Assembly (NCBI GenBank): GCA_016869025.1
Contig: VGFA01000001.1
Coordinates: 140,309 to 204,308, forward strand
Origin: Armatimonadota bacterium
GTDB lineage: Bacteria; Sysuimicrobiota; Sysuimicrobiia; Sysuimicrobiales; Humicultoraceae
DNA length: 64,000 bases
Direction of reading: 5' to 3'
Shown: positions 2,779 through 40,128 of the stretch, piece by piece
How positions within the stretch are numbered: the first letter of the stretch is position 1
Layout of the letters: each line of letters begins with the position of its first letter
Made by a program: the position numbers and the translations under genes
Notes under the pieces: model-generated
Databases searched by the model: none
What the model was told of the DNA's origin: nothing
What the model saw: only the letters and a program-made list of their open reading frames with translations

Positions 2779-3015
2779 ATGTGTCTGGCATTGCCGCACC
2801 GCATCACTCGGATTCTCGATTCTCGGAGGGCCCTAGCAGAGGGCCCCGACGGGGAGCGCACGATTTCGACTGACCTTGTCGGTGAACTTGCCCCAGGAGC
2901 GTATGTCATTGTGGTCTATGGGGCCGCTATCCGCGAAGTCGCCCCGGACGAGGCGGCCGAGATCCTCGGGCTCGTGGCCGAGCTCACCGCGCAGGATCCG
3001 CCCCTAACGCAATGA
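2779..3015 (+). CDS. hypC: Hydrogenase maturation factor HypC/HupF
   Basis: It begins MCLALP, the invariant Met-Cys-Leu-(A/G)-(I/V)-Pro N-terminus of HypC, and is 78 aa long. Its TGA overlaps the ATG of the next gene. Confidence 0.8.
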   Translation: MCLALPHRITRILDSRRALAEGPDGERTISTDLVGELAPGAYVIVVYGAAIREVAPDEAAEILGLVAELTAQDPPLTQ

Positions 3016-4571
3016 TCCGCTCACAGCCCTTGCGCCCCGCGGGTGCGCGCCGTCCCCTGGCAGCGTTGGTCGTGGCGCTGATCCTCCTGCTCGCTTGCTC
3101 TGGTGGCGCCGGGGCGTTGCCTGCCGGGCCGTTGCGGCTGGTGTGGTGGACTGATGTGGGGTTTCCGACGCCGTTTGCCGTCTCCACCCTGGGACCGGGC
3201 GGAGTGGTGCGCCTCTCGCTCCTCTACGACACCCTTGTCTGGAAGGATCACACCGGTGTGATTCCCTGGCTGGCAGAGTCGTGGCGGATCTCCGGCGACG
3301 GCAGGCGGTGGACGTTCACCCTGCGCCCTGACGTGGTCTGGCACGACGGCCGCCCCCTGACGGCCCGCGACGTGCAGTTCACCTTTGAGTACTACCGCCC
3401 CCACCCCTTTGTATGGGTTGACACATCCGTTGTTGCTGAGGTCACCACGGACGGCCCGCGCACCGTGACCTTCGTGCTCCGCGAACCCTTCGCGCCCTTC
3501 CTCGAGGACATCGCCGGAATCATCCCCGTCGTTCCGGCGCACGTCTGGGAAGGGGTGGCAGAGCCGCGTAAGGCGCAGGGTGTGGGTATGGCGACCGGCT
3601 CAGGGCCGTATCGGCTGGCAGAGTACCGGCCGGGAACCGGTGAGTACCGGCTCGAGGCAAACCACCGGTACTTCCGGGGTCGGCCCAGGTTCGAGGAGAT
3701 CCAGTACACGGTCATCCCCGCGGAACGGCAGTTGCTGGCCATTCAGAGCGGCCAGTCGGATGTGGCAATGGCCGATACCTACGACGTGGTGCGCGCGTTC
3801 TCCGGTCACCCATACTTACGGACCTGGCAGAGCGAGCCCCTGTCGGTTGCGCGCCTGCTGTTCAACACGGAGCGGCCGCCATTCGACCAGAGGGCGGCTC
3901 GCCAGTCCGTGGCCTACGGGATCAACCGCACGCAACTGGCGACGCTGGTCACGCGCGGGCCAGGGGTTCCTGGAAGCCCGGGCATCGTCCCGCCCACGGA
4001 CCGCTGGCATAACCCGCGCATCCGGGCCTATCCCTACGATCCAAGCAAGGCGCGGAGTCTGGTCGCGCAGGCAGGCCTGACGTCCCTGGCGTTTGAGCTC
4101 CTGGCCAGCCCTTCGCCGGTGGTGCCGGTAGTGCAGGAGATGCTGCGGCGCGCCGGGATCGAGGTGTCGGTGCGCACCGTGGACGCCCGGACCAGGGCCG
4201 CCCTGGTTGCGGAGGGCAAGTACCAGGCGGCGTTGACGTTTCACATAGGGGCCGGTGGGGACCCCGACTACCTGCGGCGGTGGCTCGGCGGCGGAGAGGC
4301 GAACCTCTTTGGGCAGTCCGCGGGGTTTACCCACCCCGAGTTCCGGCGCCTGGCCGCAGGGCAGGCCCGGACCCTGGATCAGGCCGCCCGCCGCGCGAGC
4401 GTCCACCGGATGCAAGAAATCCTGGCTGACGAACTTCCTACCCTTGCGCTCTACTACAGGCGGTTCTACTGGGTCTACGACAGCCGCAAGTTCATCCCCA
4501 CAGCCACGGCCGGGGGCCTGATGAACGGGATCCCGCTGATAGAGAACAAGCTCGCGTTCCTGGGGCGGTAG
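3012..4571 (+). CDS. ABC transporter substrate-binding protein, family 5 (Nik/Opp/Dpp type), probably nickel-related given its position
   Basis: 519 aa with a signal peptide and a family-5 solute-binding fold. Its start overlaps the hypC stop codon (ATGA). Confidence 0.8.
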   Translation: MIRSQPLRPAGARRPLAALVVALILLLACSGGAGALPAGPLRLVWWTDVGFPTPFAVSTLGPGGVVRLSLLYDTLVWKDHTGVIPWLAESWRISGDGRRWTFTLRPDVVWHDGRPLTARDVQFTFEYYRPHPFVWVDTSVVAEVTTDGPRTVTFVLREPFAPFLEDIAGIIPVVPAHVWEGVAEPRKAQGVGMATGSGPYRLAEYRPGTGEYRLEANHRYFRGRPRFEEIQYTVIPAERQLLAIQSGQSDVAMADTYDVVRAFSGHPYLRTWQSEPLSVARLLFNTERPPFDQRAARQSVAYGINRTQLATLVTRGPGVPGSPGIVPPTDRWHNPRIRAYPYDPSKARSLVAQAGLTSLAFELLASPSPVVPVVQEMLRRAGIEVSVRTVDARTRAALVAEGKYQAALTFHIGAGGDPDYLRRWLGGGEANLFGQSAGFTHPEFRRLAAGQARTLDQAARRASVHRMQEILADELPTLALYYRRFYWVYDSRKFIPTATAGGLMNGIPLIENKLAFLGR

Positions 4572-4589
4572 CCGGGGGCAGAGGAGACC

Positions 4590-5549
4590 GTGCGGCGCCT
4601 GGTACGCTACGCCGGGCTGGTGTGCATTGTAGTACTGCTGAACTTCCTCGTGCCGCGGCTGCTTCCCGGGAGTCCGGCAGCAGGCGGGGGCGGCGACGAG
4701 GCGGCGGTTCTGCCGTCTGCCGCCTACCGATCCCTGGTTGCCACCTATCACCTCGACCTCCCGCTGCCGGCCCAGCTCGCCAGATACATTGCCGGGTTGC
4801 CCAGGGGAGACCTGGGGTGGTCGTTGACATCGCACCGTCCGGTTGCCCGCATTCTGATGGAGCGGCTGCCCTGGACGCTCCTTCTTGTTGGCAGCGCCGT
4901 GGTGCTGGCCGCCGCGTTCGGCGGTGTCCTGGGGTGGGCGGCCGCCTGGTACGGTCGCCGCCGGGCCGTCCGCGTTCTGACCGCGGCCACCGTGGGAGTG
5001 GGCGCCCTGCCCGAGTTCCTGATCGGCATGGCGCTGATAGTTGTGTTCTCTTCTCGCCTGCAGATCTTCCCATCCGGTGGTGCCACCACCCCGTTTGCCG
5101 GCCATCATGGACTGATGCAGGCCGTGCTCGATGTGGCCTGGCACGCGGCGCTCCCGGGGTTCACGCTCGTCCTTGGCCTCACGCCGGCCTTTGCCCTGCT
5201 GATGCGCAATGCGCTCGTGCCGCTGCTGAGTGAACGGTACCTGGTGACGGCACGGGCCAAGGGGCTCACCTCCAGGCGTGTCGCCTGGCACGCGCTTCGC
5301 AACGCGTTGCCACCCGTGGCCACGCTCCTGGGACTCCGGCTGGGTACGGCAGTCGCCGGAGCGGCCGTGGTCGAGCGCATCTTTGCCTACCCTGGGATGG
5401 GCATGCTTCTGTACGAGGCGATAAGCACGCGCGACTACCCCTTGATGCAGGGCGTGTTTCTGGTAGCCAGCCTGGCGGTGCTGACGGTGAACCTGCTTCT
5501 GGACCTCGTTGCCGCCAGGCTCGATCCTCGACTCGAGGGCCAGGCGTGA
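4590..5549 (+). CDS. ABC transporter permease (DppB/NikB-like)
   Basis: 319 aa polytopic protein. It carries the binding-protein-dependent permease signature around RNALPPVATLLGLRLG. Confidence 0.8.
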   Translation: MRRLVRYAGLVCIVVLLNFLVPRLLPGSPAAGGGGDEAAVLPSAAYRSLVATYHLDLPLPAQLARYIAGLPRGDLGWSLTSHRPVARILMERLPWTLLLVGSAVVLAAAFGGVLGWAAAWYGRRRAVRVLTAATVGVGALPEFLIGMALIVVFSSRLQIFPSGGATTPFAGHHGLMQAVLDVAWHAALPGFTLVLGLTPAFALLMRNALVPLLSERYLVTARAKGLTSRRVAWHALRNALPPVATLLGLRLGTAVAGAAVVERIFAYPGMGMLLYEAISTRDYPLMQGVFLVASLAVLTVNLLLDLVAARLDPRLEGQA

Positions 5550-6397
5550 ACGCGCACGGCCGCCCGCGGCGCCGGCCGAACGGGCGAGGCACGGCCGCGA
5601 CCGGAGCCGCGGTGCTGGTCGCCCTTATCCTCCTGGCGATGGCCGCGCCCCTGCTGTCCCCTGAGGAGCCCGACCGCATAGCCGGAGATCCGGCCGCACC
5701 TCCTGGCCCGCGGTTCTGGCTGGGCACCAACGCGATGGGGCAGGACCTGTTCAGCCACCTGCTCTACGGCGCGCGGACCTCTCTCCTGGTGGGGTTTCTT
5801 GCCGCCTGCCTGTCCACGGGCCTCTCCGCCGCGGTCGGCATCTCCGCGGGGATGTGGCGGCGGGGCCAGGGCATGCTCATGGCGCTGGTGGACCTCTTCC
5901 TGGCCTTGCCCCAGGTGCCGCTCATCGTGCTGATGGTGGTCTTCTGGGGCCCGGGCTTCTGGCCGCTCGTGGGAACCCTGGCCCTGATCGGATGGGCCGC
6001 GTTCGCGCGCATCGTGCGCGCACAGGTTTCGGTTACCCTACGGAAGGAGTACGTTGAGGCGGCGCGCGCGCTGGGGGCTTCGGAAGGACGCGTGCTGCGG
6101 GCAATCGTCCTGATGGAGGTGGCCCCGATCCTGTTCACGAAGTTCCTGCTGACGGTGCGGTGGGCGGTCCTAATGGAGGCCACGCTGGGGCTGCTGGGAC
6201 TCGCCGATCCCGGTCGCGTGAGCTGGGGGCTCGTGCTCCACCAGGCCTTTGGGTACCCGCTGCTCTTCCTGAATGGCGCCTGGCTCTGGTGGGCTGTTCC
6301 CCCGGCTATCGGGATCGTGGTCGTGACCCTGGCCTTGATGGCCGTGGGGCAGGACGTTGACTTGTGGCTCAACCCGGCCATGCGTCCTCCGGCGTGA
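5546..6397 (+). CDS. ABC transporter permease (DppC/NikC-like)
   Basis: 283 aa polytopic permease. Its ATG overlaps the previous stop. No ATPase gene follows. Confidence 0.8.
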   Translation: MNAHGRPRRRPNGRGTAATGAAVLVALILLAMAAPLLSPEEPDRIAGDPAAPPGPRFWLGTNAMGQDLFSHLLYGARTSLLVGFLAACLSTGLSAAVGISAGMWRRGQGMLMALVDLFLALPQVPLIVLMVVFWGPGFWPLVGTLALIGWAAFARIVRAQVSVTLRKEYVEAARALGASEGRVLRAIVLMEVAPILFTKFLLTVRWAVLMEATLGLLGLADPGRVSWGLVLHQAFGYPLLFLNGAWLWWAVPPAIGIVVVTLALMAVGQDVDLWLNPAMRPPA

Positions 6398-6480
6398 ACC
6401 CTAGGGACGTCGCAAACGACCGGTCGTGCGCGGCACCTATGGGCGCCTCGCGGCCCATATCCTATGATGTCCACGGAGGG

Positions 6481-7269
6481 ATGCCCCGAATGCTGACTGG
6501 GTCGCTTCAGGTCGGCCCCCCTGTTCCTGCCGCCGCGGGAGCAGGAGGCGTCCTGGACGGCACGCTGCTGTTTGCCCGGTTCGCCTTCATGCCCAATCAC
6601 CTGGGCTACTGCGGCGACGACTCCAACGCCACGCTCCTCGCCTACATGCGGGAAAGCGTATCCGATCAGGGGCTGCGCCGCCACCTCAACGCGTTCTCCG
6701 GAGCCCTGCCCTATCTTCGTGTGATCGCGGAGTCCAACGGCATAGCCGATCCGTTTGACGCGCGGGTTGTGGAGGCATACTGGATCGGCAACGGCCTTCT
6801 GGAGACCGTGGACTGGGCGTTTCACGCCAGGCGTCTCCACGAGCGGTTCAGCGGCCGCGTGCGCCCGGCCACCATGGAGCTGCTGGTGGGCAAGCCGCGC
6901 GCCGGTGCGCGTGCCCACCACGCCTTCCACGTGTTCGACGTATCATTCCGTACCGGACTGCCCCAGGGCGATGCAGCGCTGGATCTCTGCCGCATCGGCT
7001 GGGGGACGGTCAACGCAGTGGAACCCGTTGCCTTCACGGTGACGTACCGGCCGATCGTCCTGCGACAGGGACGGCTTTGCTTTGGCGAGCCCCAGACGGA
7101 GCGTGTGCTTCGGGCGATGGGCACGGATCAGTTCCTGGATGAAGCGTCGGTGGGAGACGTGATCGCCTTCCACTGGCGGTGGGCATGCCTCAAGCTCACC
7201 CCGGCGCAGGTGGCCAACCTCGAACGGTACACCCAGGGCATGCTGGCCCTGGCAAACCAGACTTTCTGA
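6481..7269 (+). CDS. Conserved hypothetical protein embedded in the nickel-transport/hyp cluster
   Basis: The ORF runs 6364-7269. The likely start is the ATG at 6481 or 6490, because a GGAGGG sits 9 nt before 6490. No recognisable catalytic motif was found. It has four Cys residues. The sequence is soluble. Confidence 0.5.
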   Translation: MPRMLTGSLQVGPPVPAAAGAGGVLDGTLLFARFAFMPNHLGYCGDDSNATLLAYMRESVSDQGLRRHLNAFSGALPYLRVIAESNGIADPFDARVVEAYWIGNGLLETVDWAFHARRLHERFSGRVRPATMELLVGKPRAGARAHHAFHVFDVSFRTGLPQGDAALDLCRIGWGTVNAVEPVAFTVTYRPIVLRQGRLCFGEPQTERVLRAMGTDQFLDEASVGDVIAFHWRWACLKLTPAQVANLERYTQGMLALANQTF

Positions 7270-7280
7270 GGCAGAGCCGG

Positions 7281-7520
7281 ATGCACGAGGTGGCAATCGC
7301 ACAGGCCCTGCTGACCGAGGTAGAAGCCGCGGCTTCGCGGCACGGCCTGAAGAGCGTTTCAGCGGTGGGCATCTGCGTGGGACAGAACAGCGGCGTCGCG
7401 GCAGAGCCCTTGATGCAGGCGTTCGAGATCCTACGCGGGGGCTGCGCGGGTTGCGCGGTGCTCGATCTGAGGACCACCGAGGGCACCGACCTCCGCATGG
7501 AGTGGCTGGAGGGAGAATGA
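7281..7520 (+). CDS. hypA: HypA-like nickel-insertion protein, N-terminal Ni domain only (zinc finger absent)
   Basis: It starts MHEVAIAQALL, which carries the HypA Met-His-Glu nickel-binding N-terminus. It is only 79 aa. It has a single CAGC pair instead of the CxxC-x12-CxxC zinc site. The stop overlaps the hypB ATG. Confidence 0.65.
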   Translation: MHEVAIAQALLTEVEAAASRHGLKSVSAVGICVGQNSGVAAEPLMQAFEILRGGCAGCAVLDLRTTEGTDLRMEWLEGE

Positions 7521-8251
7521 CCGTGCGCGTGGAGGTAGTGGAGCGCATCCTGCGTGCCAACGATGCGCTGGCCGCCGAGGTCCGCGGACTGCTCGACCGG
7601 GCTGGCATCACGGCCGTCAACCTGATTGGTTCCCCGGGCAGCGGTAAGACCTCTCTCCTGGAACGGACTGCGGCCCTGCTCCACCCACGCCTTCGCCTCG
7701 GTGTCATAGAGGGAGACATCGCCACGACCCGCGATGCGGAGCGCGTTGCCCGCTGCGGTATCCCCGCAGTGCAGATCGAGACCCGCCTGGTAGGCAACGC
7801 GTGCCACCTGGACGCGAGCATGGTACAGACCGCGCTCGGTCGCCTGCCGCTGGCGGACGTGCAGGTCCTGTTCATCGAGAACGTCGGAAACCTGGTCTGT
7901 CCCGCGGCGTACGACGTCGGCGAGCACCTGCGCGTCGTGGTGGCAAGCGTTCCCGAGGGCGACGACAAGGTGTACAAGTATCCGTCCACATTCTCCAGGG
8001 CAGACGCGGTGGTCCTGAACAAGATAGACCTCGTTGCGGCCACCGAGTTCTCGCTCGAGGTCTTCACAGCCGGGCTGCGCGAGGTAACGGCGGCGCCGCT
8101 CTTCCCGGTCTCGGCACGCACCGGAGAAGGCGTGGCGGACTGGATCACCTGGATAGAGGCACGGCAGACCTGTCACGCGCGCGATGCGGCCCACCCCGCA
8201 ACGGCCGCCGGTCAGGATCCGGCGGTGTCAGACGGCACAGGGGCGGGCTAG
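7517..8251 (+). CDS. hypB: Hydrogenase nickel incorporation GTPase HypB
   Basis: It has a GSPGSGKTSL P-loop, an ENVGNLVCP motif and an NKIDL motif. The N-terminus lacks the Cys/His-rich metal site found in many HypB proteins. Confidence 0.9.
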   Translation: MTVRVEVVERILRANDALAAEVRGLLDRAGITAVNLIGSPGSGKTSLLERTAALLHPRLRLGVIEGDIATTRDAERVARCGIPAVQIETRLVGNACHLDASMVQTALGRLPLADVQVLFIENVGNLVCPAAYDVGEHLRVVVASVPEGDDKVYKYPSTFSRADAVVLNKIDLVAATEFSLEVFTAGLREVTAAPLFPVSARTGEGVADWITWIEARQTCHARDAAHPATAAGQDPAVSDGTGAG

Positions 8252-8265
8252 TCAAGGGGGACGAC

Positions 8266-8742
8266 ATGGAGGGATACTCTCCGACCGAGTTGCTGCGCTC
8301 CTCGCACCTGTTTGGGGCGCTGGAGCCCCAGCATCTGGAGAAGCTGGCCGCGATTGCCTCGGAGGTCACCTGGGCCGAGGGCCAGGTGATATTCCGGGAA
8401 GGCGAGGCCGATGACAGGTTGTACCTGGTGGTTGAGGGACTGGTGGCGCTGGAGATGTACATCCCCAATCGCGGCCGCGCCACGATCCTGACCGCCGGCC
8501 CGCACGAGATATTCGGGTGGTCGGCGGCCGTACCGGTTGTCGGGAAGAAGACCGCCGGCGCGCGCGCCCTGCAGAGGACGCGGGCCATTGCCATAGATGC
8601 GGGCGCGCTGTGCGCGGCCTGCGAGCAGGATCACGACCTCGGCTTCTACGTCTATCGCACCCTGGCAGATGTTATTGCCAGCCGCCTGACCGCGACGCGC
8701 CTGCAACTGCTGGACGTGTACGCGGTTGGCAAGGGAGAGTGA
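8266..8742 (+). CDS. Stand-alone cyclic-nucleotide-binding (CAP effector) domain protein, no DNA-binding domain
   Basis: 158 aa with a CAP_ED fold (FGALEP...IFGWSAAVPVVGKKTAGARALQ). The phosphate-binding Arg-Thr-Ala is Lys-Thr-Ala here. Its 3' end overlaps the hydrogenase beta subunit gene. Confidence 0.7.
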   Translation: MEGYSPTELLRSSHLFGALEPQHLEKLAAIASEVTWAEGQVIFREGEADDRLYLVVEGLVALEMYIPNRGRATILTAGPHEIFGWSAAVPVVGKKTAGARALQRTRAIAIDAGALCAACEQDHDLGFYVYRTLADVIASRLTATRLQLLDVYAVGKGE

Positions 8743-9877
8743 GGGACGGTTGATGGTTGAGCAGACACCACCGCTTGGCGGGCAGGTGGTAATCTCCAAG
8801 CCAGCCCTGCAGCAGATCTTCGATGCGCTGCGCACGGTCGGCTACTGCCTGATTGGCCCGACCGTGCGCGGGGATGCCATTGTGTACGACGAGATCGCCC
8901 TCCTGGACGATCTTCCCATCGGGTGGGCCGATGAGCAGGGGCCGGGCACCTACCGGCTCCATCGCCGCGACGATCAGGCGCACTTCGGGTTCGTCGTCGG
9001 TCCGCACTCGTGGAAGAGGTATCTATACCCGCCGTCGCTGAGACTCTTCTCGACGCGCCGGGACGGGGACGGGTTCAGCGTCGAGGCGAACACCGATTCT
9101 CCGCCCTTGTACGCGTTCATTGGCGTGAGAGGGTGCGAGCTGGCGGCCATCGCCGTGCAGGATCGGGTGTTTCTCGAGGGTCCGGTGCAGGAGCCGCACT
9201 ACAAGACCCGCCGCGAGCGCGCTTTCGTCCTGGCCGTGAACTGCACCGAGCCAGGCGGCTCCTGCTTCTGCGCATCCGTGAGGACCGGCCCCAGGTGTTC
9301 GTCTGGTTTCGACCTGGCCCTGACCGAGATGGACGACGTCTTCCTGCTGGAAGTCGGCTCGGCACTGGGAGCGCAGATGCTGTCCGGGGTTGAGTGGCGG
9401 CTGGCCGGCGCCTTCGACCTGAGCCGCGCCCGGCAGGCAATGGCCGATGCCTTGACGCGCATGGGCAGGGGGCTCAACACCCACAACCTGCCTGATCTGC
9501 TGTACGACAACCTGGAACACCCCCACTGGGAGGACGTGGCGAAGCGCTGCCTCTCGTGCGCCAACTGCACCATGGTGTGCCCCACCTGCTTCTGCTCTGA
9601 CGTGCTGGAGGCAAGCGATCTCACCGGCGAGACCGCCGCGCGTGTGCGCGTCTGGGACTCCTGCTTCAATCGCGAGTTCTCCTACGTGTTCGGCGGGCAC
9701 CTTCGGCCAAACACACGCGCCCGATACCGCCAGTGGCTCACGCACAAGCTGGCATCGTGGAAGGACCAGTACGGCGTCTCGGGGTGCGTGGGGTGCGGTC
9801 GGTGCATAACGTGGTGCCCGGTGGGCATTGACCTGACCGCGGAACTTGCGGCCATCAGAGGGGAGAGCCCGCTATGA
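8726..9877 (+). CDS. [NiFe] hydrogenase group-3b-type beta subunit (HydB/AsrA-like 4Fe-4S protein)
   Basis: 383 aa with the ferredoxin motifs CLSCANCTMVCPTCFC and CVGCGRCITWCP. Confidence 0.75.
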   Translation: MARESEGRLMVEQTPPLGGQVVISKPALQQIFDALRTVGYCLIGPTVRGDAIVYDEIALLDDLPIGWADEQGPGTYRLHRRDDQAHFGFVVGPHSWKRYLYPPSLRLFSTRRDGDGFSVEANTDSPPLYAFIGVRGCELAAIAVQDRVFLEGPVQEPHYKTRRERAFVLAVNCTEPGGSCFCASVRTGPRCSSGFDLALTEMDDVFLLEVGSALGAQMLSGVEWRLAGAFDLSRARQAMADALTRMGRGLNTHNLPDLLYDNLEHPHWEDVAKRCLSCANCTMVCPTCFCSDVLEASDLTGETAARVRVWDSCFNREFSYVFGGHLRPNTRARYRQWLTHKLASWKDQYGVSGCVGCGRCITWCPVGIDLTAELAAIRGESPL

Positions 9878-10743
9878 ACCCAACCCAGGCCAAGAGCCAA
9901 CGCCCACCATCTACCGGCCACCCCCTGGTACCCCAGCCGGCGGTGATCACCCACGTGCAACCCGAGGCGCAGGGCGTTACGACGTACACGCTGGAGTTCA
10001 ATGACCCGGCCGTGCGCGAGGCATACCGCTTTTGCCCTGGCCAGTTCAACATGCTCTACCTGCCGGGCATCGGGGAGTCGGCCATATCCATCAGCTCGGA
10101 TCCGGCTGAGCCCGCCCTCCTGCGTCATACGATCCGCTTCGCCGGCAACGTCACCCAGGCCATCTCCAGGATGGATGCCGGCGGCGTGATAGGCGTGCGC
10201 GGCCCCTACGGAAACCCCTGGCCCGTGGACCGGGCAGTGGGCAACGACCTGATAATCGTGGCCGGAGGCATCGGCCTGGCCCCTCTGCGCCCGGTAATCT
10301 ACCACGTTCTCAGGCACAGGGCCGACTACGGCAAGGTTACCATCCTGAACGGTGCGCGTCTCCCGACCGACCTGCTCTACCCGCAGGAGTACGACCTGTG
10401 GCGTAGCCGAGACGTCGAGGTCGTCGTGACCGTGGACCGCGCCGACGAGGCGTGGAAAGGCCGCGTGGGCGTGGTACCCATGCTGTTCTACGCGGTGAGG
10501 CCCGACCCCAAGCGCACGACCGTCTTCACTTGCGGGCCGGAAATCATGATGCACTTCGTGGTCTACGAGGCGCTGGCGCGTCGAGTCCCCAAGGAACGCA
10601 TCTACCTGTCGCTGGAGCGCAACATGAAATGCGCTGTTGCATTCTGCGGTCGCTGCCAGTACGGCCCGACCTTCCTGTGCAAGGATGGGCCGGTCCTGAG
10701 TTACGACCGCATTGAGCCGTTCTTCACCGTGGAGGAGTTCTGA
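9874..10743 (+). CDS. [NiFe] hydrogenase gamma subunit (FAD/NAD(P)-binding, 2Fe-2S; HydG/AsrB-like)
   Basis: 289 aa with a ferredoxin-reductase-type fold. The C-terminus carries [17 protein letters not shown]. Its ATG overlaps the previous TGA. Confidence 0.75.
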
Positions 10744-11543
10744 TGGCTACTCCCAAGAAGCGCAAGCCCAGCCTGGCGGTGTTCAAGTTCGCGTCATGCG
10801 ACGGCTGCCAGCTTTCGCTGCTGGATTGTGAGGATGCCGTGCTCGCCGTGGCCGACGCGGTGGAGATTGCCTATTTCGTCGAGGCCCGCCGGCAGGCACT
10901 TGCCGGCCCCTATGACGTGACCCTGGTCGAGGGCTCGGTAACCACCGAAGAGGAAGTCGAGCGCATCAAGGAAGTACGGCGCCAATCCGGGCTGCTGGTG
11001 ACCATCGGCGCGTGCGCCACCTCCGGCGGCATCCAGGCACTGCGCAACTGGGCGGACGTGGGCGAGTTCACGCGGACCGTTTACGCCAGCCCCGAGTACA
11101 TCCACACGCTGGATCGCTCGCGTCCGATCAGCGATTTCGTGCCCGTGGACTTCGAGCTGCGCGGTTGCCCCATCAGCAAGCAGCAGCTCGTGGACCTTGT
11201 CACCTCGCTGCTGATCGGGCGCAAGCCGTCGGTACCGGAACACGCGGTGTGCAACGAGTGCAAGCGGCAGGGGACGGTCTGCGTGATGGTCGCGGAGGGG
11301 GTCCCGTGCCTGGGTCCGGCCACGCAGGCCGGGTGCGGCGCGATCTGCCCGGCCTACAACAGGGGGTGCTACGGGTGCTTCGGCCCAATGGATCTGTCCA
11401 ATCCGGCCGCGCTCGGCGCCCGCTTCATCGCGATGGGACAGACCGCTCGTGACGTCAGCCGCGCCTTCCGCGGCTTCAACGGCTACTCGGCGGTCTTCCG
11501 GGCGGCCAGCGAGCAGTTTGAAAAGGACGCCATCCCAAGTTAG
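10743..11543 (+). CDS. [NiFe] hydrogenase small (delta) subunit
   Basis: 266 aa with Cys clusters typical of the hydrogenase small subunit / NuoB-like family ([22 protein letters not shown]). Confidence 0.8.
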
Positions 11544-11559
11544 TCAGGGGAGAGAGGCA

Positions 11560-12864
11560 ATGGCCGAGAGACGCATCAACGTGGACTACCTGGCCCGCGT
11601 CGAGGGTGAGGGCGCGCTGCGGGTCGTGATCAAGGACGATCGCGTTACCGACGTCCAGCTCAACATATTCGAGCCGCCACGCTTCTTCGAGGCGTTTCTG
11701 CGAGGCCGCACGCCCCAGGAGACCGTGGACATCACGGCCCGAATCTGCGGCATCTGCCCGGTGGCCTACCAGATGAGCGCCGCCCACGCGTTGGAGAAGG
11801 CCCTGGGCGTGACCCCTCCGCCCGGCGTACGCGCCCTGCGCCGGCTGCTCTACTGCGGCGAGTACATCGAGAGCCACGTGTTGCACATCTTCATGCTGCA
11901 TGCGCCGGATTTCATCGGACACGAGTCGGCCATCAGCATGGCCACCGATCCGGCCCTGCGTCCGCTGGTCGAGCAGGCGCTGCGAATGAAGAAGATCGGC
12001 AACCACCTGGTGACGGTCATCGGTGGGCGCGAGATCCACCCGGTCTCGGCATGCGTGGGCGGCTTCTACCGGGCGCCGCGCAAGTCGGAACTCGTGGCCC
12101 TGGTTCCGGATCTCGAGTGGGGCCTCGAGAGGGCGGTGGAGGCCGTGCGGTGGGCGGCCACGCTGGACTATCCTGACTTCACCGCCGACTACGAGTTCGT
12201 CTCCCTGTCACATCCTGATGAGTACCCCTACAACGAGGGGCGCGTGGTGTCGTCCAGAGGGCTGGACATCCCGATAGAAGAGTACGAGCGGCACTTCCTA
12301 GAGGAGCACGTCGAGCACTCCAACGCGCTTCACTCGCGCCGCGCGGGCAGCAAGACGAGCTACATGGTGGGGCCGCTGGCGCGGGTGAACCTGAACTTCG
12401 ACCGGCTCTCGCCCAGGGCCCAGTCGGCGGCGCGTGACATCGCGCTGACCCTGCCCGTGCGCAACCCGTTCATGAGCCTGCTCGCGCGCGGGCTGGAGCT
12501 GGTTCATGCCTATGAGGAGGCGCTCCAGTTGATCGCCTCCTACGTGGAACCCGTTCCCTCAAGGTCGCCCATCCCCACGCCTCCGAGGGCCGGGGAGGGA
12601 GCCCATGCCACCGAGGCACCGCGCGGTCTGCTGTACCACCGGTACACGGTAGACGCAGCGGGCCTGATCGCCGGTGCCAGGATCGTACCGCCGACCGCGC
12701 AGAACCTGAGGCGCATGGAGGACGACCTGTGGCAGTACGTGCCCGGGGTGCTGGCTCTACCGCTCGAGGAGGCCACGCTGCGCTGCGAGCAGCTCGTGCG
12801 CAGTTACGATCCGTGCATCTCGTGCGCCACGCACTTCTTGAAGCTCGACCTTGAGCGGGAATAG
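11560..12864 (+). CDS. [NiFe] hydrogenase large (alpha) subunit
   Basis: It has the N-terminal [10 protein letters not shown] motif (first CxxC Ni ligands). The C-terminal [10 protein letters not shown] is followed by a short tail, which is the protease cleavage site. 434 aa is the size of a group-3 enzyme. Confidence 0.9.
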
Positions 12865-13360
12865 GGAGAGAACTGCCGGGGCCAAGGCCCCATCCGCGCT
12901 GATCATAGGCATTGGTAACGCGTCGCGGGGCGACGATGCGGCAGGGCTGATCGCCGCCCGCCTGATCAGGGATGCGCTTCTTTCCCTCCCGGATCCCCCG
13001 GATCCGGGGCGCGTTGCGGTGCTCGAACAGGATGGCGAGGGCACCGCCCTTGTCGCGGCCTGGAAGGGCGCGGAGACCGTGATCCTGATAGATGCCGCCC
13101 TCTCCGGCGCGGCTCCCGGCAGCATACACCGCTTCGATGCCCTCGGCCAGCCGCTCCCGGCCGGGTTCCGCGCTTGCTCGACTCACGCGTTCGGAGTGGC
13201 AGAGGCGATCGAGCTGGCCAGGGCGCTGGACCGGCTGCCGCAGCGGCTCATCGTCTACGGAATCGAGGGCCTGTCGTTCTCGGCAGGCGAGGTGCCCTCG
13301 GAGGCGGTCGAGGCCGCGGTACGGGCGGTGGTCGAGCGCGTGCTGGCCGACGTAAGGTAG
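12851..13360 (+). CDS. Hydrogenase maturation endopeptidase (HycI/HoxW family)
   Basis: It has the [16 protein letters not shown] motif and the D...H core. It overlaps the large-subunit stop. Confidence 0.8.
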
Positions 13361-13368
13361 CGCCGCCG

Positions 13369-13383
13369 GAAATACTGTTTCCG
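13369..13383. promoter_or_regulatory. Short palindrome GGAAA-TACTG-TTTCC 40 nt upstream of acuA
   Basis: Perfect 5-bp arms with a 5-bp spacer, read directly from the sequence. It is not GC-rich, so it is more operator-like than terminator-like. Confidence 0.25.
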
Positions 13384-13424
13384 TCCGATGGCCTGCCGGA
13401 CCCGGGCGGGCTATTCTGTCATAG

Positions 13425-14057
13425 GTGAGAACAGCCATGGCCCCGGCCGCTGAGCAGGCACGGGCATTCCCCGAGATCCTCGCGCTCGAAGGCGGCGCAG
13501 CACTCGCGGAGTACGAGATCGCTCCAGGCCTGGGCGCGTTCTCCTCTTACGGACGCCGGCGCGCGCAGGTCGTCCGCGAGACGCTGGGCAGGGGGCTGCG
13601 GGCTCCGGGTGGGGAGGCCTTCGCCGCAGTCCTTGGCGACACAATCATCGGCTACCTGCTCCTGGTGCCGGCCGGCATTGACCAGCCCTGGGGCCGGCTG
13701 GGGGATCCCAGGGTGCTTGAGGTCGGCATAGAGGTGGCGCGCGGGCACAGAGGGCAGGGAATCGCTCAATCGTTGTTCCGCCGTGCCTTCGCCCGACCGG
13801 TGGTGGAGTCGCGGATATACGTGGCCACCGGGTACGTGTGGTGCTGGGACATCGAGGACACCGTCATCGAGGCCGGGATCTACGCCGACCGCCTGCTGGC
13901 GCTCTTCGGGCGGTTTGGGTTCCGGCGCGAGTGGACCAACGAACCCAACGTGGCCCTCGAGCCGCTGAACTTCCTGGCGGTGCGGATCGGGCAGGACGTG
14001 CCCGCGGCGCTCGTCAGCCGCTTTCGCCTGGCACAGCGGGGCGAACAGGTGGCCTGA
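13425..14057 (+). CDS. acuA: AcuA-family GNAT protein acetyltransferase
   Basis: 210 aa, the same length as B. subtilis AcuA. It aligns with AcuA across the GNAT core (IIGYLLLVP, VLEVGIEVARGHRGQGIAQSLF, YVATGYVWCWDIED, NFLAVRIGQDV). Confidence 0.7.
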   Translation: MRTAMAPAAEQARAFPEILALEGGAALAEYEIAPGLGAFSSYGRRRAQVVRETLGRGLRAPGGEAFAAVLGDTIIGYLLLVPAGIDQPWGRLGDPRVLEVGIEVARGHRGQGIAQSLFRRAFARPVVESRIYVATGYVWCWDIEDTVIEAGIYADRLLALFGRFGFRREWTNEPNVALEPLNFLAVRIGQDVPAALVSRFRLAQRGEQVA

Positions 14058-14067
14058 GGGAGCGGCT

Positions 14068-14715
14068 ATGCGCGTGCGCACCCTGATGACGTCGCCGGCG
14101 CTCGTGGTTGGGCCGGAGGCCCCGGCCTGGGAGGCCCTGGGGCTCATGCGGAGGCACCGCATCCGGCGCCTGCCGGTTGTGGACGGCGAGGTCCTGGTCG
14201 GGATCATTACCTGGACCGATGTGGTCCGCGTGCATGCTCCGGCGGTTGAGGGCCCCAGGCGCACTCCAACCCTGTCGGTGGGAGTGCTCGTCAGGCACCT
14301 GATGGCCAGCGCGCCCGTGACGGTTGATCCGGACGCCACGATTGAGCAGGCGGCCGCGCTCATGCGCCGACACAAGATCGGGGGGCTGCCTGTGGTCGAG
14401 GACGGCCGGCTGGTCGGCGTCATCACCGAGAGCGACCTGTTCGAGGCCTTCGCGGAGATGCTTGGGGCCGGCCCGCATGAGGTCAAGCTCCACCTGGCAG
14501 TTGGCAGCATTTCCGTTGAACTTCCAAGAATCGTGTCTAGGCTGACGAAGGCCGGAATCCCCATAGTTGCCGTGCACACGCTGCGCACCTCGGGTGCGGA
14601 GGTCGTAGAACTCGTGGTTCACGAGAACGACGTGGGGCGCGCCCGGGAGGTATTGCACCGTCTTGCCCTCGAAACAGACGTCGTGGAAGCGCAGGAGAGG
14701 GGGGACCGCGCGTGA
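14068..14715 (+). CDS. acuB: AcuB-like CBS-CBS-ACT protein (paralogue 2)
   Basis: 215 aa with two CBS motifs and a C-terminal ACT domain. It lies immediately downstream of the acuA homologue, as in the Bacillus acuABC operon. Confidence 0.75.
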   Translation: MRVRTLMTSPALVVGPEAPAWEALGLMRRHRIRRLPVVDGEVLVGIITWTDVVRVHAPAVEGPRRTPTLSVGVLVRHLMASAPVTVDPDATIEQAAALMRRHKIGGLPVVEDGRLVGVITESDLFEAFAEMLGAGPHEVKLHLAVGSISVELPRIVSRLTKAGIPIVAVHTLRTSGAEVVELVVHENDVGRAREVLHRLALETDVVEAQERGDRA

Positions 14716-14993
14716 CCGCGAGCAGAGAAGGCAATGCTTCCGTCGGGGTGATCCCGCCGCAGCGGGTGCTCATCGCCGCCGAGCGGTGCAAGGGCTGCGG
14801 GCTTTGCGTGGCCGTCTGCCCGCCTGAGATCATGGAGTTGGGGTCGCTCAACCGCCTGGGGTATGCTGTTGTGCGCGTGACCGATCAGGCCCGGTGCACT
14901 TCCTGCACGGCGTGCGCGCTGGTCTGCCCGGAGGTGGCCATCACTGTGATGCGCCCCCAGCGGGCCCGCCAGACGCGGGAGGGCGCCAAGTGA
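14712..14993 (+). CDS. korD: 2-oxoacid:ferredoxin oxidoreductase delta subunit (2x[4Fe-4S] ferredoxin)
   Basis: 93 aa with the motifs [12 protein letters not shown] and [12 protein letters not shown]. Confidence 0.85.
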
Positions 14994-16042
14994 AGCGCAC
15001 CTTGATGAAGGGAAACGAGGCGCTGGCCGAGGCGGCCATTCGCGCCGGTTGCAGGGCCTATTTCGGCTATCCGATCACGCCCCAGAACGAGGTGCCGGAG
15101 TACATGGCCCGCCACATGCCAGGGGCGGGTGGCGTCTTCGTGCAGGCAGAGAGCGAGATCGCGGCCATCAACATGGTCCACGGCGCTGCGGGCGCCGGCG
15201 TCCGCGCTATGGCCACCACCAGCAGCCCCGGATTTAGTCTGATGACAGAAGGCCTTTCCTACATGATCGGCTCCCGGCTGCCGTGCGTCGTGGTCAACGT
15301 GATGCGCGGAGGTCCTGGGCTCGGCAACATTGCACCGGCGCAGGGAGATTACTTCCAGGTTACCCGCGGGCTGGGACACGGTGACACCCACGGCATCGTG
15401 CTAGCGCCGTCCACGGTCCAGGAGATCGTTGACCTCATGCCCGTCGCGTTCGAGCTGGCCGAGCGCTACCGGCTGCCAACGGTGATCGCCGCAGACGGCA
15501 TACTCGGGCAGATGATGGAACCGGTGGCGCTGCCTGAACCCATCGCGCCTCCGCCTCCTCCTGAGTGGGCCACGACCGGCGCGGTGGGAAGCCCCCGCGT
15601 GATCTCGTCCATCTATCTGGCGCCGGAAGAGCTCGAACAGCACGTCCTTTCCCTGATGAGGACCTACCAGGAAATCCGCGAGCGCGAGCAGCGATGGGAG
15701 GCCTACCGCGCCGACGACGCGGAGGTGCTCGTTGTGGCCTACGGGACCGCGGCCCGCGTTGTGCGATCGGCCGTGGATCGCGTGCGCGCGCAGGGAGTCG
15801 CAGCCGGATTGATCAGGCCGATCACCCTCTGGCCGTTCCCGACTTCCGCGTTCGAGATGTCGCCGCGCCGGTGGCTGGTTGTGGAACTCAGCGCGGGACA
15901 GATGGTGGAGGACGTTCGCCTCGCCGTATCGGGCAGGGCGCCGGTCGGATTGTACGGCCGCGTCGGTGGGGTAGTGCCTTCTCCGGCGGAGGTGTCGGAG
16001 GCGATTCGGGCGGCCGTGGCCGAGGAGGTGGCCTGGGCATGA
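14990..16042 (+). CDS. korA: 2-oxoacid:ferredoxin oxidoreductase alpha subunit
   Basis: It has the [11 protein letters not shown] and [18 protein letters not shown] signatures. A GTG start overlaps the korD stop. An alternative ATG lies at 15005. Confidence 0.85.
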
Positions 16043-16800
16043 TCAAGGACATGGTTGAGGTTACGGCCAGGCCCCGCTCGCTGGTGGACGTGCCCCTGCA
16101 CTACTGCCCGGGTTGCACGCACGGCATAATCCACCGTCTGGTGGCCGAGGCCATTGACAGTCTGGGCATCCGGGAGCGGACTATCGGCGTAGCGTCGGTT
16201 GGGTGCTCGGTCTTCATCTACAACTACCTCGACGTGGACTTCCAACAGGCCCCGCACGGCAGGGCGCCGGCGGTTGCCACGGGCATCAAGCGCGTACTGC
16301 CCGACCGCGTCGTGTTCACCTACCAGGGGGACGGCGATCTGGCCTCGATAGGCGCCGCTGAGATCCTCCACGCCGCCGCGCGGGGCGAGCGCATCACGGT
16401 CATCTTCGTGAACAACGCGATCTACGGCATGACCGGCGGTCAGATGGCGCCGACCACGCTGTCCGGAATGAAGACCACGACCACCCCCTTCGGCAGGGAG
16501 ATCCGCCAGGCGGGGGGGGCGCTGCGCGTGGTCGAACTCCTGGCCGGCATGGACGGCGTGGCATACGCCGCGCGCGAAGCGGTCACGAGCCCTGCCCGTA
16601 TCCACCGGGCCCGCCGCGCCGTAGAGGCCGCGTTCAGGGCGCAGATCGAGGACAGGGGTTTGGGCATAGTCGAGCTGCTCTCGACCTGTCCGGTGAACTG
16701 GAAGCTCCCGCCGGTCGAGGCGGTCGCGTGGTGCGAGGCCAACATGATCCCCGCGTTCCCGCTGGGCGTCCTGAAGGACACCACCGGGAGCGGGGGGTAG
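16039..16800 (+). CDS. korB: 2-oxoacid:ferredoxin oxidoreductase beta subunit (TPP-binding)
   Basis: It has YCPGCTHG and [12 protein letters not shown] motifs. Its ATG overlaps the korA TGA. Confidence 0.85.
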
Positions 16801-16804
16801 CAGC

Positions 16805-17344
16805 ATGGCCGTCCACGAGATCGTGATAGCCGGCTTCGGGGGACAGGGCGTGCTGTTTCTGGGTGAAGTCCTCGCGCAGGCGGCCCTCAGCGAGGGGCGC
16901 GAGGTAACCTGGCTGCCCGCTTACGGACCGGAGCAGCGCGGCGGCACCGCGTACTGTACGGTCGTGATCAGCAGCGAACCCATCGGCTCGCCTGTGGCCT
17001 CAGACCCAACCGTGGTGATCGCGATGAACCGGCCGTCGCTGGACCGGTTTGAGCCCGCGGTTCGGCCCGGGGGCCTGATCGTATGCGATAGCACGCTGAC
17101 GGGGAGGGTACCTGAGCGCGCCGACGTCCAGGCCATTGCGGTGCCGGCGACGGCCATCGCCGCCGAGCTGGGCGCGGCGCGGGCGGCGAATGTCGTGCTG
17201 CTGGGCGCCACAATGGCGGCGAGACCGATCCTTACGATAGAGAGCGTGCGCGCGGCCCTGGACGGGATGGTGGCAGACCCTCAGGTCATGGCGCGTAACC
17301 TTGCGGCGTTCGAGCGCGGCGCGCGCGAGGGCTCCCGCCCATGA
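16805..17344 (+). CDS. korC: 2-oxoacid:ferredoxin oxidoreductase gamma subunit
   Basis: 179 aa. It has the gamma-subunit signature IAGFGGQGVLFLGEVL...GPEQRGGTAYCTVVIS. Confidence 0.85.
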   Translation: MAVHEIVIAGFGGQGVLFLGEVLAQAALSEGREVTWLPAYGPEQRGGTAYCTVVISSEPIGSPVASDPTVVIAMNRPSLDRFEPAVRPGGLIVCDSTLTGRVPERADVQAIAVPATAIAAELGAARAANVVLLGATMAARPILTIESVRAALDGMVADPQVMARNLAAFERGAREGSRP

Positions 17345-18027
17345 AGCAGGCCCGAGACGCTTCGCCGGGAGGCCCCAGGACCATCCGGCTCATTGTCGCC
17401 GACGACCATGCCATCGTGCGCGAGGGCATCAAGCGCCTGCTCCAGGCCGAGCCGGACATCGAGGTCGTGGGTGAGGCGGGTGACGGTGTCGCGGCCGTGG
17501 AGATGGCCCAGGATCTCAAGCCCGACGTTGTGTGTCTGGATGTCAGCATGCCCAGGATGAATGGGGTGGAGGCGACCCGGCGCATCAGGGCCTCCCTGCC
17601 GGACGTCGGGGTGGTCGTCCTGACAATGCACGAGGACGAGGACTACGTGTTCGAGTTGGTGAAGGCAGGCGCTTCGGGCTACGTCTTGAAGCGGGCCAGC
17701 GCCCGCGACCTGGTGGATGCCGTGCACGCCGTGGCCGGGGGCCACACATTCCTGCATCCAATGATTGCGCGGCGGCTGGTCTCGGATCACGAGACATCCA
17801 GCAGCCGCGACGAAGAACGCCGGCGGTTCGACGGCCTGACCGAACGGGAACGCGAGGTCGTACGCCTGATCGCCGATGGCCTGACCAACAAGGAGATCGC
17901 GGAACGGCTCCACATCAGCGTCAAGACCGTCGAAACCCATCGCACGCACATCATGGAGAAGCTCGATCTGCACGATCGCGCACACCTGGTGCGCTACGCT
18001 GTCCGGAAGGGGCTGGTCACCGCATGA
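17341..18027 (+). CDS. Orphan two-component response regulator, NarL/FixJ (LuxR-HTH) family
   Basis: The receiver domain is IRLIVADDH...VVCLDVSMP...VLK. The C-terminal LuxR HTH is LTEREREVVRLIADGLTNKEIAERLHISVKTVETHR. Both ends overlap neighbouring genes (ATGA). Confidence 0.85.
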   Translation: MKQARDASPGGPRTIRLIVADDHAIVREGIKRLLQAEPDIEVVGEAGDGVAAVEMAQDLKPDVVCLDVSMPRMNGVEATRRIRASLPDVGVVVLTMHEDEDYVFELVKAGASGYVLKRASARDLVDAVHAVAGGHTFLHPMIARRLVSDHETSSSRDEERRRFDGLTEREREVVRLIADGLTNKEIAERLHISVKTVETHRTHIMEKLDLHDRAHLVRYAVRKGLVTA

Positions 18028-18716
18028 TCCCGAAGGATCAGGGATGGCCGTACTCGGCCCGGGCCCTGGCCGCCCGCATCGAGCACTCGGTCCTGGCGCC
18101 CGAAGCCGGACAGGCCGACGTGGAATCCGGTTGCACCGTGGCCCGTGCCCGGGGAGTTCGATCCGTGGTGGTCAAGCCGGTGCACGTCGCCTTGGCCCGC
18201 CGGCTGCTGGAAGGGACCGGGATCCGCGTGGTGAGCGTGATCGGGTTCCCCCACGGTAACTCGACGCCGGAGGTGAAGGCCCTGGAGGTCTCCGCCGCGA
18301 TCCGGGACGGTGCCGATGAGGTGGACGTCGTGGTGAACGTCGGCGCCCTGTGCGAGGGCCGATGGGAGCCGGTGGCGGAGGAACTTCGGGCGGTCGTGGC
18401 CGCGTCAGGCGGCAGTCCGGTGAAGGTGATCCTGGAGACCGCGCTGCTGACCGATGCCGTCAAGGTTCGTGCGTGCGGGCTCGCGGATGCCTCGGGCGCG
18501 GCCTATGTGAAGACTTCCACGGGATTTGGCAGGGCAGGGGCAACGGTGGCCGACGTGGCGCTGTTGCGGGGCAATGTGGGGTCTGGCGTCGGAGTGAAGG
18601 CGTCAGGGGGAATCCGCACGCTGGCGGATGCGGCGGCAATGATCGCCGCGGGAGCCGACCTCATCGGAACGAGCCAGACCGAAGCGATCCTGGACGAGGC
18701 CGGCTCCGCCGCCTGA
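18024..18716 (+). CDS. deoC: Deoxyribose-phosphate aldolase
   Basis: It has the VVKP and KTSTGFG class-I aldolase Schiff-base lysine context and is DeoC-sized at 230 aa. Confidence 0.8.
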   Translation: MIPKDQGWPYSARALAARIEHSVLAPEAGQADVESGCTVARARGVRSVVVKPVHVALARRLLEGTGIRVVSVIGFPHGNSTPEVKALEVSAAIRDGADEVDVVVNVGALCEGRWEPVAEELRAVVAASGGSPVKVILETALLTDAVKVRACGLADASGAAYVKTSTGFGRAGATVADVALLRGNVGSGVGVKASGGIRTLADAAAMIAAGADLIGTSQTEAILDEAGSAA

Positions 18717-40089: not shown

Positions 40090-40128
40090 GCGCGCTTGCC
40101 TCCTCGGGTGTGGTCACAAGACGCCCCA
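40090..40128 (-). promoter_or_regulatory. Conserved leader element, short copy A (RBS-proximal part)
   Basis: On the minus strand the leader reads ggggcgtcttgtgaccacacccgaggaggcaagcgcgc-ATG, matching copies B and C. Confidence 0.55.

Follow-up and report, generated by a model that had tools for sequence, protein, structure and literature searches.

AcuA- and AcuB-family genes at the head of a probable 2-oxoacid:ferredoxin oxidoreductase transcription unit in the candidate phylum CSP1-3

The window analysed here is a 64,000-nucleotide (nt) stretch from a genome labelled Armatimonadota bacterium (contig VGFA01000001.1, positions 140,309 to 204,308). Our subject is a pair of genes, acuA-like and acuB-like, which lie between a [NiFe] hydrogenase cluster and the genes of a 2-oxoacid:ferredoxin oxidoreductase (OFOR). 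The nearest relatives of the window proteins are found in metagenome-assembled genomes (MAGs) under the Armatimonadota label, including Candidatus Fervidifonticultor, a genus of Humicultoraceae in the candidate phylum CSP1-3/Sysuimicrobiota (PMC11604079). The window is identical to part of a 323-kb contig in a JGI metagenome (3300020109 Ga0194112_10000008). Domain content was taken from the public Pfam tables for that contig, which cover window positions 1–61500 plus 9.3 kb leftward, and the final 3 kb were scanned separately. The G+C content is 66–72% across most of the window.

Around the pair, the + strand carries, in this order, a VKOR gene, a gene for a CBS-CBS-ACT protein (1895–2605), hypC, a nickel/oligopeptide-type ABC transporter, and DUF6390. 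These are followed by hypA, hypB, a gene for a cyclic nucleotide (cNMP)-binding protein, hydB, hydG, hydD, hydA, and the hycI protease gene. Then come the acuA-like GNAT gene, the acuB-like gene, OFOR delta, alpha, beta and gamma, a LuxR-type regulator, and deoC. Downstream of deoC lie genes for a holin-like protein, tatA, tatC, and more genes. The features from the end of hycI to deoC are as follows.

13361–13436, + strand: spacer between hycI and acuA-like, 76 nt, with conserved boxes and a Shine–Dalgarno (SD) sequence, GGTGAG, at 13424–13429
13437–14057, + strand: acuA-like, predicted AcuA-family GNAT lysine acetyltransferase, 206 aa (alternative GTG start at 13425)
14068–14715, + strand: acuB-like, CBS-CBS-ACT protein of the predicted adenine-nucleotide-sensor type, 215 aa
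14712–14993, + strand: OFOR delta, 2x[4Fe-4S] ferredoxin-like (Pfam Fer4_7 and others; best NCBIfam models, OorD and PorD_KorD, below cut-off)
14990–16042, + strand: OFOR alpha (POR_N + PFOR_II)
16039–16800, + strand: OFOR beta, thiamine pyrophosphate-binding (TPP_enzyme_C; NCBIfam 2-oxoacid/2-oxoglutarate beta models below cut-off)
16805–17344, + strand: OFOR gamma (PF01558 POR; NCBIfam gamma models below cut-off)
17341–18027, + strand: LuxR/NarL-type response regulator (Response_reg + GerE), overlapping the gamma stop
18024–18716, + strand: deoC, deoxyribose-phosphate aldolase (TIGR00126, 232.9 bits; cut-off 117.3), the last tightly packed gene

The acuA-like protein was compared with the PDB using phmmer. 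Over its full length, it matched Exiguobacterium AcuA (2q04, E = 7e-17, residues 25–201 on 28–200) and Bacillus subtilis AcuA (9g7f_C, E = 3e-11). The next match after these two AcuA entries had an E-value of 0.3. As no NCBIfam model matches the protein, it was assigned to its family from PDB sequence matches, PDB fold matches, and a profile search. The AlphaFold2 (AF2) model had a predicted local distance difference test (pLDDT) value of 88.6. A Foldseek search with this model gave template-modelling (TM) scores of 0.83–0.84 and E-values of 1e-15 to 1e-17 for the two AcuA structures. The best non-AcuA GNAT reached E = 1e-6, and all other GNATs had TM scores of 0.56 or less. In E-value, AcuA leads by ten orders of magnitude. 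The AcuA-specific fold is fully retained in the model, including the C-terminal extension past the GNAT core. A joint AcuA profile, built from the window protein and the Chloroflexota, deltaproteobacterial, Bacillus, and Exiguobacterium sequences, retrieved at least 3671 proteins, with Bacillaceae AcuA at the top (E ~1e-67). The window GNAT is a specific member of the AcuA family, not a generic acetyltransferase.

The start codon is likely ATG 13437, 12 nt later than the 13425 given in the preliminary description of this locus, because 206 aa is the commonest length among the relatives, an SD-like GGTGAG is present at 13424–13429, and the JGI gene call concurs. In B. subtilis AcuA, E102 is the general base and W140 stacks on acetyl-coenzyme A (acetyl-CoA) (PMC11255334). 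The equivalents of E102, W140, and R108 in the acuA-like protein (E99, W137, and R105, respectively) were invariant across the clade alignments A1 and A5.

The acuB-like protein contains two CBS domains (Pfam E = 1e-36). Its sequence matches in the PDB were Thermus thermophilus TTHA0829 (E = 9e-24) and Geobacillus AcuB (E = 6e-18). In the AF2 model (pLDDT 85), residues 138–206 form the beta-alpha-beta-beta-alpha-beta fold of an ACT domain. The top 19 Foldseek PDB matches were all Geobacillus or B. subtilis AcuB crystal structures from 2026 (TM 0.74–0.79 over ~207 columns), followed by TTHA0829 and then by CBS-only proteins at TM scores of ~0.5. A G-h-h-T-x-x-D signature, a putative ribose-phosphate-binding motif of CBS domains, occurs in both modules (GIITWTD at 45–51 and GVITESD at 117–123), and residues G45, D51, G117, T120, and D123 were invariant in alignment A3. 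The modelled acuB-like protein has the AcuB-family Bateman(CBS2)–ACT architecture. The best sequence match, TTHA0829 (PDB 5awe), is a CBS-CBS-ACT protein of unknown function annotated as an acetoin utilization protein. It shares 33% identity and the three-domain layout with the acuB-like protein. TTHA0829 is without a described AcuA partner, whereas the acuB-like gene begins 10 nt past an AcuA gene.

The preliminary description had proposed homologues of AcuA and AcuB at this position, with the reservation that the GNAT might cluster with non-AcuA acetyltransferases. Both assignments are confirmed, the first by the full-length PDB match, the fold, and the profile search, and the second by the paired CBS domains, the ACT fold, and the structural matches to AcuB. 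In sequence, fold, and profile alike, the GNAT groups with AcuA.

The OFOR is encoded as a full four-subunit set (delta, alpha, beta, and gamma) in one cluster. The alpha subunit scored 506.7 bits against the NCBIfam VorB subfamily model NF005507 (cut-off 399). In the PDB, it matched a 2-keto acid:ferredoxin oxidoreductase alpha subunit (1yd7, E = 2e-64), 2-oxoglutarate synthase alpha (E = 1e-43), and the alpha part of pyruvate:ferredoxin oxidoreductase (PFOR; E = 2e-23). The earlier name korDABC was right in pointing to a four-subunit 2-oxoacid:ferredoxin oxidoreductase. The general name OFOR fits better than kor, since alpha passes the VorB cut-off, the other subunits pass none, and the best PDB matches of alpha are a generic 2-keto-acid enzyme and 2-oxoglutarate enzymes.

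The genes from acuA-like to deoC are tightly packed. The acuA-like stop and the acuB-like ATG are separated by 10 nt, and this gap holds a ribosome-binding site (GGGAG) 5 nt past the stop. Four-nucleotide overlaps occur at acuB-like/delta (GTGA 14712–14715), delta/alpha, alpha/beta, gamma/regulator, and regulator/deoC, while beta and gamma are 4 nt apart. These overlaps indicate co-translation. It had been asked previously whether the acuA–acuB pair might be transcribed independently of the kor genes. The genes are packed as one unit, with 4-nt overlaps or a 4-nt gap from acuB-like through deoC, and judged from this arrangement a transcription of acuA–acuB independent of the OFOR genes is unlikely.

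To compare the locus with its relatives, one scan of GTDB species representatives was carried out with alignment of close relatives. It yielded 32 loci, in which the window proteins were mapped and all open reading frames (ORFs) were clustered. Fifteen related CSP1-3 loci were considered (L008–L020 and L022, together with L041 from a separate search). The order acuA–acuB–OFOR delta/alpha/beta/gamma was kept in all 15, with AcuA identities from 94% down to 51%. A [NiFe] hydrogenase was found upstream of acuA in 14/14 of the loci that hold upstream sequence. The placement of acuA–acuB between a hydrogenase and an OFOR, noted earlier for this one genome, thus recurs beyond it. Thirteen of the 15 loci have the regulator on the 3′ side of the OFOR; it was not detected in L020 or L022. 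The upstream hydrogenase is mostly group-3b-like. L015 has a group-4-like HycE/D/F/G cluster, and HoxF-containing 3d-like clusters occur in L020 and L022. The varying hydrogenase clusters, next to which the acuA–acuB–OFOR unit stays constant, are located as follows.

L015, 3615–9525: group-4-like HycE/D/F/G cluster
L020, 1308–6242: HoxF-containing 3d-like cluster
L022, 4816–9220: HoxF-containing 3d-like cluster

In Fervidifonticultor, genes for a universal stress protein (Usp) and a CBS-BON protein lie between acuB and the OFOR (L014:2098–3334; also L016, L018, and L019). Some relatives have an AcuB–Usp fusion. Usp and CBS-BON are further nucleotide-binding modules of the unit. A 640-aa gene 3′ of the regulator in Fervidifonticultor was considered as a candidate AcsA and ruled out, as it encodes a P-type ATPase.

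The spacer in front of acuA-like contains three boxes, AAATACTGT (13370–13378), CGTCCGATGG (13382–13391), and CTATTCTG (13411–13418). The clade form of these blocks is AAATAnnGT, CGTCCGATGG, and CTAT(G/T)CTGG. They were present in all 14 CSP1-3 loci with sequence 5′ of acuA, regardless of the upstream gene. The first block occurs once in the window, with 0 chance matches expected. The spacer is probably the promoter/operator of a unit running from acuA-like to deoC. It is probably activator-dependent, and the co-encoded LuxR-type regulator is a candidate binder. As a structured RNA leader, the spacer was ruled out (RNAalifold −1.0 kcal/mol, without structure or covariation), and Rfam returned only the transfer-messenger RNA (tmRNA) over the whole window.

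Relatives of AcuA were also found outside CSP1-3. The Anaerolineae members are 33–37% identical to the window protein, and the member at L023 is 37% identical to B. subtilis AcuA. Their cluster is located as follows.

L023, 4701–11471 (also L026, L027, L029, L031, L033, L034, and L038): Anaerolineae cluster with a CBS pair, a GltD-like NADPH oxidoreductase, alanine dehydrogenase, acetyl-CoA hydrolase/transferase, and AcuA-like, followed by a di-haem cytochrome c, a PAS histidine kinase, and a regulator

The acuA start in Anaerolineae overlaps the stop of the acetyl-CoA hydrolase/transferase gene. An OFOR 54–60% identical to that of the window precedes the cluster in three of the ten loci with enough upstream sequence. 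In a deltaproteobacterial MAG (L028:161–4923), an AcuA-like gene is divergent from iorA–iorB–paaK-like, which encode an indolepyruvate-type OFOR and an AMP-forming ligase. This layout mirrors the divergent acsA/acuA pair of Bacillus. The neighbourhood of acuA with OFOR or acyl-CoA enzymes, noted for the window, was thereby met again in distant relatives from Chloroflexota and a deltaproteobacterium. Such a link in three phyla and three gene orders is not easily explained by inheritance alone. Two further distant AcuA relatives (L021 and L024) have unrelated neighbours.

The AcuA/AcuB/AcuC mechanisms were worked out in 2024–2026 in Bacilli only, and are read there as the control of AcsA, with AcuB as an AcuC inhibitor. 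AcuA acetylates AcsA at K549, AcuC removes the acetyl group, and AcuB, when loaded with AMP or diadenosine tetraphosphate (Ap4A), uses its ACT domain to inhibit AcuC (PMC11255334, PMC11910552, PMC13039410, PMC13121692). The window shares with the acuABC loci of B. subtilis and Geobacillus the same two families in the order acuA then acuB, at similar lengths (B. subtilis AcuA has 210 aa, and the two window proteins have 206 and 215 aa, respectively). The AcuA fold, the general-base Glu, the equivalents of Trp140 and Arg108, and the Bateman-plus-ACT architecture of AcuB are also shared. Unlike those loci, the window lacks an acuC behind acuB and an acsA upstream; the OFOR, the regulator, and deoC stand in the place of acuC. 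The host belongs to CSP1-3/Sysuimicrobiota rather than to Firmicutes, and the identities are 26–30% for AcuA and 24–27% for AcuB.

Two other known systems resemble the locus in part. The Pat/PatZ/AcuA-type control of AMP-forming acyl-CoA synthetases likewise places an acetyl-CoA-dependent acetyltransferase at the acetyl-CoA node, but the window has no linked AMP-forming ligase, and its enzyme is of the single-domain AcuA type as compared to the large Pat type. The four-subunit Kor/Vor/Por OFORs have the same subunit set and order (delta-alpha-beta-gamma), but described OFOR operons that begin with acetylation-system genes were not found. Searching the literature for AcuA in combination with ferredoxin oxidoreductase gave no relevant papers.

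Genes for AMP-binding (AcsA-type), Hist_deacetyl (AcuC-type), and SIR2 proteins were absent from window positions 1–64000 and from the 9.3 kb to the left. At the related CSP1-3 loci, neither AMP-binding nor Hist_deacetyl genes were detected. It had been stated before that no acuC or acsA lies nearby, and this stands for the 64-kb window and the 9.3 kb leftward. The acs gene is reported in four of five CSP1-3 families, and the supplementary table lists K01895 at 1–4 copies per MAG (PMC11604079). With 1–4 acs copies per genome in the phylum, the absence of a nearby acsA does not equal the absence of acsA.

With these results in hand, we lean, on balance, towards the explanation that a conserved OFOR transcription unit with its own control region starts with acuA-like and acuB-like as its first two cistrons, and that the target of the acetyltransferase is likely an unlinked AcsA. 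The identities, folds, and catalytic residues of the proteins, the packing of the genes, and their conserved synteny are observations; from them, we infer the AcuA target, the direction of control, and the AcuB partner. The acuA–acuB module would be co-made with an OFOR, a source of acyl- or acetyl-CoA and reduced ferredoxin. Acetyl-CoA derived from the OFOR would serve both as the signal and as the acetyl donor for AcuA. AcuA would then act on an unlinked Acs, and the ATP-consuming activation of acetate would be turned off while oxoacid oxidation supplies acetyl-CoA. AcuB may sense the adenylate pool as an energy-charge input, and may modulate the reverse reaction by way of an unlinked deacetylase, or act on another partner. 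The hint given in the preliminary description, that lysine acetylation may control acetyl-CoA/2-oxoacid redox metabolism, is partly supported by the family identities and the conserved neighbourhood; an acetylation of the OFOR or the hydrogenase would be a further, hypothetical step.

Several findings weigh against this explanation. The ~73 kb around the pair contain no gene for AcsA, AcuC, or a sirtuin, and the AcsA target is therefore assumed rather than seen. The sole demonstrated function of AcuB is the inhibition of AcuC (PMC13039410, PMC13121692), yet the locus has no linked AcuC. The 15 CSP1-3 loci form a single family-level clade, and part of the synteny may therefore be inherited and not selected. 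Scans for sigma-70 promoters and intrinsic terminators between 12.5 and 19.5 kb gave nothing above the shuffled controls, and thus neither mark the limits of the unit nor speak against it. Two features of the acuA-like protein also differ from the Bacillus enzyme. In B. subtilis AcuA, H139 and R108 support an acetyl-phosphate-dependent, Pta-like activity (PMC11255334). At the His139 position, all CSP1-3 and Chloroflexota members carry Cys (WCW for WHW), and the two Desulfobacula/deltaproteobacterial members carry Ile or Val (W(I/V)W). The motif is encoded as follows.

13839–13847, + strand: codons for W135-C136-W137 of acuA-like (WCW motif)

Neither pta nor ack is reported for the CSP1-3 genomes, for which an ADP-forming acetate–CoA ligase subunit and several OFORs are listed (PMC11604079). 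The apparent loss of His139 is consistent with the lack of acetyl-phosphate metabolism in these genomes. The second feature is the C-terminal tail. The last residues of B. subtilis AcuA (201-RLRFYHRYMY-210) enter and plug the CoA site of AcsA (PMC11910552). The tail of the acuA-like protein is RFRLAQRGEQVA, with the clade pattern RFRxxQRGE(R/Q)(A/V)A, in which F196, R197, G202, and A206 are nearly invariant. This clade-conserved tail is unlike the AcsA-plugging Bacillus tail in sequence (QRGE(Q/R)(V/A)A as compared with FYHRYMY). With acs present in the phylum, the likeliest AcuA target is still an unlinked AcsA.

The same two features would fit a change of target, in which AcuA acylates the OFOR or plugs the CoA site of the OFOR with the clade tail, and AcuB binds the OFOR or AcuA instead of AcuC. 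We regard this as unlikely. It agrees with the fact that the target gene of Bacillus AcuA is a neighbour, and that in the window, as in the 15 related loci, this place is taken by an OFOR, translationally coupled to the pair. The Chloroflexota acuA, whose start overlaps the acetyl-CoA hydrolase/transferase stop, would be a similar case, and both the conserved tail and the His139Cys exchange depart from the AcsA-binding Bacillus form. The extra adenylate-binding modules (Usp and CBS-BON) between acuB and the OFOR in Fervidifonticultor, the AcuB–Usp fusions among relatives, and the missing link to AcuC point in the same direction. Against these stand the lack of a biochemical precedent for AcuA on a non-AcsA substrate and the acs genes found across the phylum. 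Moreover, the neighbouring enzyme varies by phylum (OFOR, CoA-transferase, or ligase), and a shared acetyl-CoA theme fits this variation better. The outcome of such a change, which we find equally doubtful, would be a feedback of the acyl-CoA product and the energy charge on 2-oxoacid oxidation; in the other phyla, the neighbouring CoA-transferase or PaaK-type ligase would take the place of the OFOR. It is similarly improbable that in CSP1-3, and in a variant form in Anaerolineae, AcuA and AcuB have been freed from AcsA and AcuC to become a dedicated acyl-CoA/energy-charge sensor-effector for the OFOR.

The pair could also do its canonical job on an unlinked AcsA and AcuC, with the adjacency to the OFOR being an accident of descent that shares only a promoter. 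The origin of all 15 loci with the exact arrangement from one family-level group of CSP1-3 speaks for this, as do the presence of an OFOR in just three of the ten informative Chloroflexota loci and the unrelated neighbours at L021 and L024. An accident of descent is harder to reconcile with a gene order that stayed constant despite an AcuA identity of 51%, three hydrogenase types, and insertions between acuB and the OFOR. The recurrence of AcuA beside OFOR or acyl-CoA enzymes across three phyla and three gene orders, and the four-nucleotide overlaps with the co-translation they indicate, also argue against it, and we consider this alternative quite improbable.

It is very unlikely that the GNAT is no protein acetyltransferase here and uses a small molecule, another OFOR-derived acyl-CoA (succinyl- or isobutyryl-CoA), or the response regulator as a substrate, for although the alpha subunit passes the VorB cut-off, with best PDB matches to 2-keto-acid and 2-oxoglutarate enzymes, and Cys stands in place of the active-site neighbour His139, the entire AcuA-specific fold is kept together with its C-terminal extension, the catalytic Glu and Trp are invariant, and no small-molecule GNAT is near in sequence or fold.

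If acuA-like and acuB-like keep their known roles towards an unlinked AcsA, the locus modestly extends a known system, to a host and an operon partner that are new for it. If they switch the OFOR, this would be the first description of an OFOR with a post-translational switch encoded in its operon, and AcuB would gain a second, AcuC-independent function. In either case, the new elements are divergent members of AcuA and AcuB in a conserved operon without AcuC or AcsA, in an uncultured and poorly known phylum. Taken with the related acuA genes beside CoA-transferase, OFOR, and acyl-CoA ligase genes in two other phyla, these suggest that AcuA-family proteins regulate the acetyl-CoA node in general, and that partners of AcuB beyond AcuC are possible. 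The candidate pairs are AcuA with Acs or the OFOR, and AcuB with OFOR delta or a deacetylase. They bear on the post-translational control of anaerobic acetyl-CoA and ferredoxin metabolism.

The remaining features of the locus are the hydrogenase genes and a second CBS-CBS-ACT gene.

1895–2605, + strand: second CBS-CBS-ACT gene, TTHA0829-like, between the VKOR gene and hypC; two CBS domains
8753–13360, + strand: [NiFe] hydrogenase cluster, group-3b-like (Pfam and NCBIfam)
8753–9877, + strand: hydB
9874–10743, + strand: hydG
10743–11543, + strand: hydD
11560–12864, + strand: hydA
12851–13360, + strand: hycI protease gene

The hydrogenase subunits best match the beta, gamma, delta, and alpha models of NAD(P)-dependent sulfhydrogenase, below the equivalog cut-offs, and the hycI protease passes the cut-off of TIGR00072 (hydrog_prot). 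Group 3b hydrogenases occur in the CSP1-3 phylum (PMC11604079). The hyp region (2779–8742) is interrupted by a transporter, and consists of hypC, the nickel/oligopeptide-type ABC transporter (3012–6397), DUF6390, hypA, and hypB. The gene just 5′ of hydB encodes a stand-alone cNMP-binding protein (158 aa), and Pfam detects no DNA-binding domain in it.

The second CBS-CBS-ACT protein is 35–41% identical to the acuB-like protein. In alignment A3, it clusters with a widespread subgroup, several members of which have the ACT Pfam domains PF22190 (the TTHA0829-like type) or PF01842. The JGI call for this gene starts at 1973, which leaves out 26 conserved residues at the N-terminus. The correct start is 1895, as MLVRDRM fits the N-terminus of the family in A3. 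The hyp/hyd genes at L013 are preceded by an orthologue with 68% identity, and the second CBS-CBS-ACT gene may belong with the hydrogenase genes. The second AcuB paralogue reported in the preliminary description does exist at 1895–2605, with the right start. Its description as a duplicate bracketing the hydrogenase locus does not hold for a recent duplication, given the 35–41% identity and its position 10 kb off, by hypC. It adds little to the acuAB/hydrogenase pattern.

Another GNAT gene (31983–32855, 290 aa, Acetyltransf_1 + FR47) lies directly past obg, nadD, and rsfS, and is not of the AcuA family. About 4–8 kb to the left of the window (L040:1417–5750), there is a polysulfide/thiosulfate-reductase-like set consisting of a molybdopterin oxidoreductase, a 4Fe-4S protein, an NrfD membrane subunit, and a rhodanese, followed by MoeA–MobB and MobA genes.

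The tmRNA gene (Rfam, 165 bits) is located at 38986–39335, ~2.8 kb past smpB (35637–36137), with purE, purK, and a Sua5-type gene in between. The stretch that follows it (40000–44000) is the sole lower-GC part of the window (63–64%), and carries small opposite-strand genes without Pfam matches. It may be an island inserted at ssrA; an integrase was not seen there. A 1543-aa ORF without a recorded Pfam match occupies 44774–49405, and is followed by genes for an RDD-domain protein and a PrsW-type protease. An arsenic/metal-resistance-like cluster (51871–55900) comprises an ArsR-type helix-turn-helix regulator, an ArsP permease, a thioredoxin-like protein, an SBF/Acr3-type carrier, and two chromate-transporter halves. 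The genes at 60477–64000 encode CapC, DUF6305, and gamma-glutamyltranspeptidase, which suggests a cluster for poly-gamma-glutamate metabolism.

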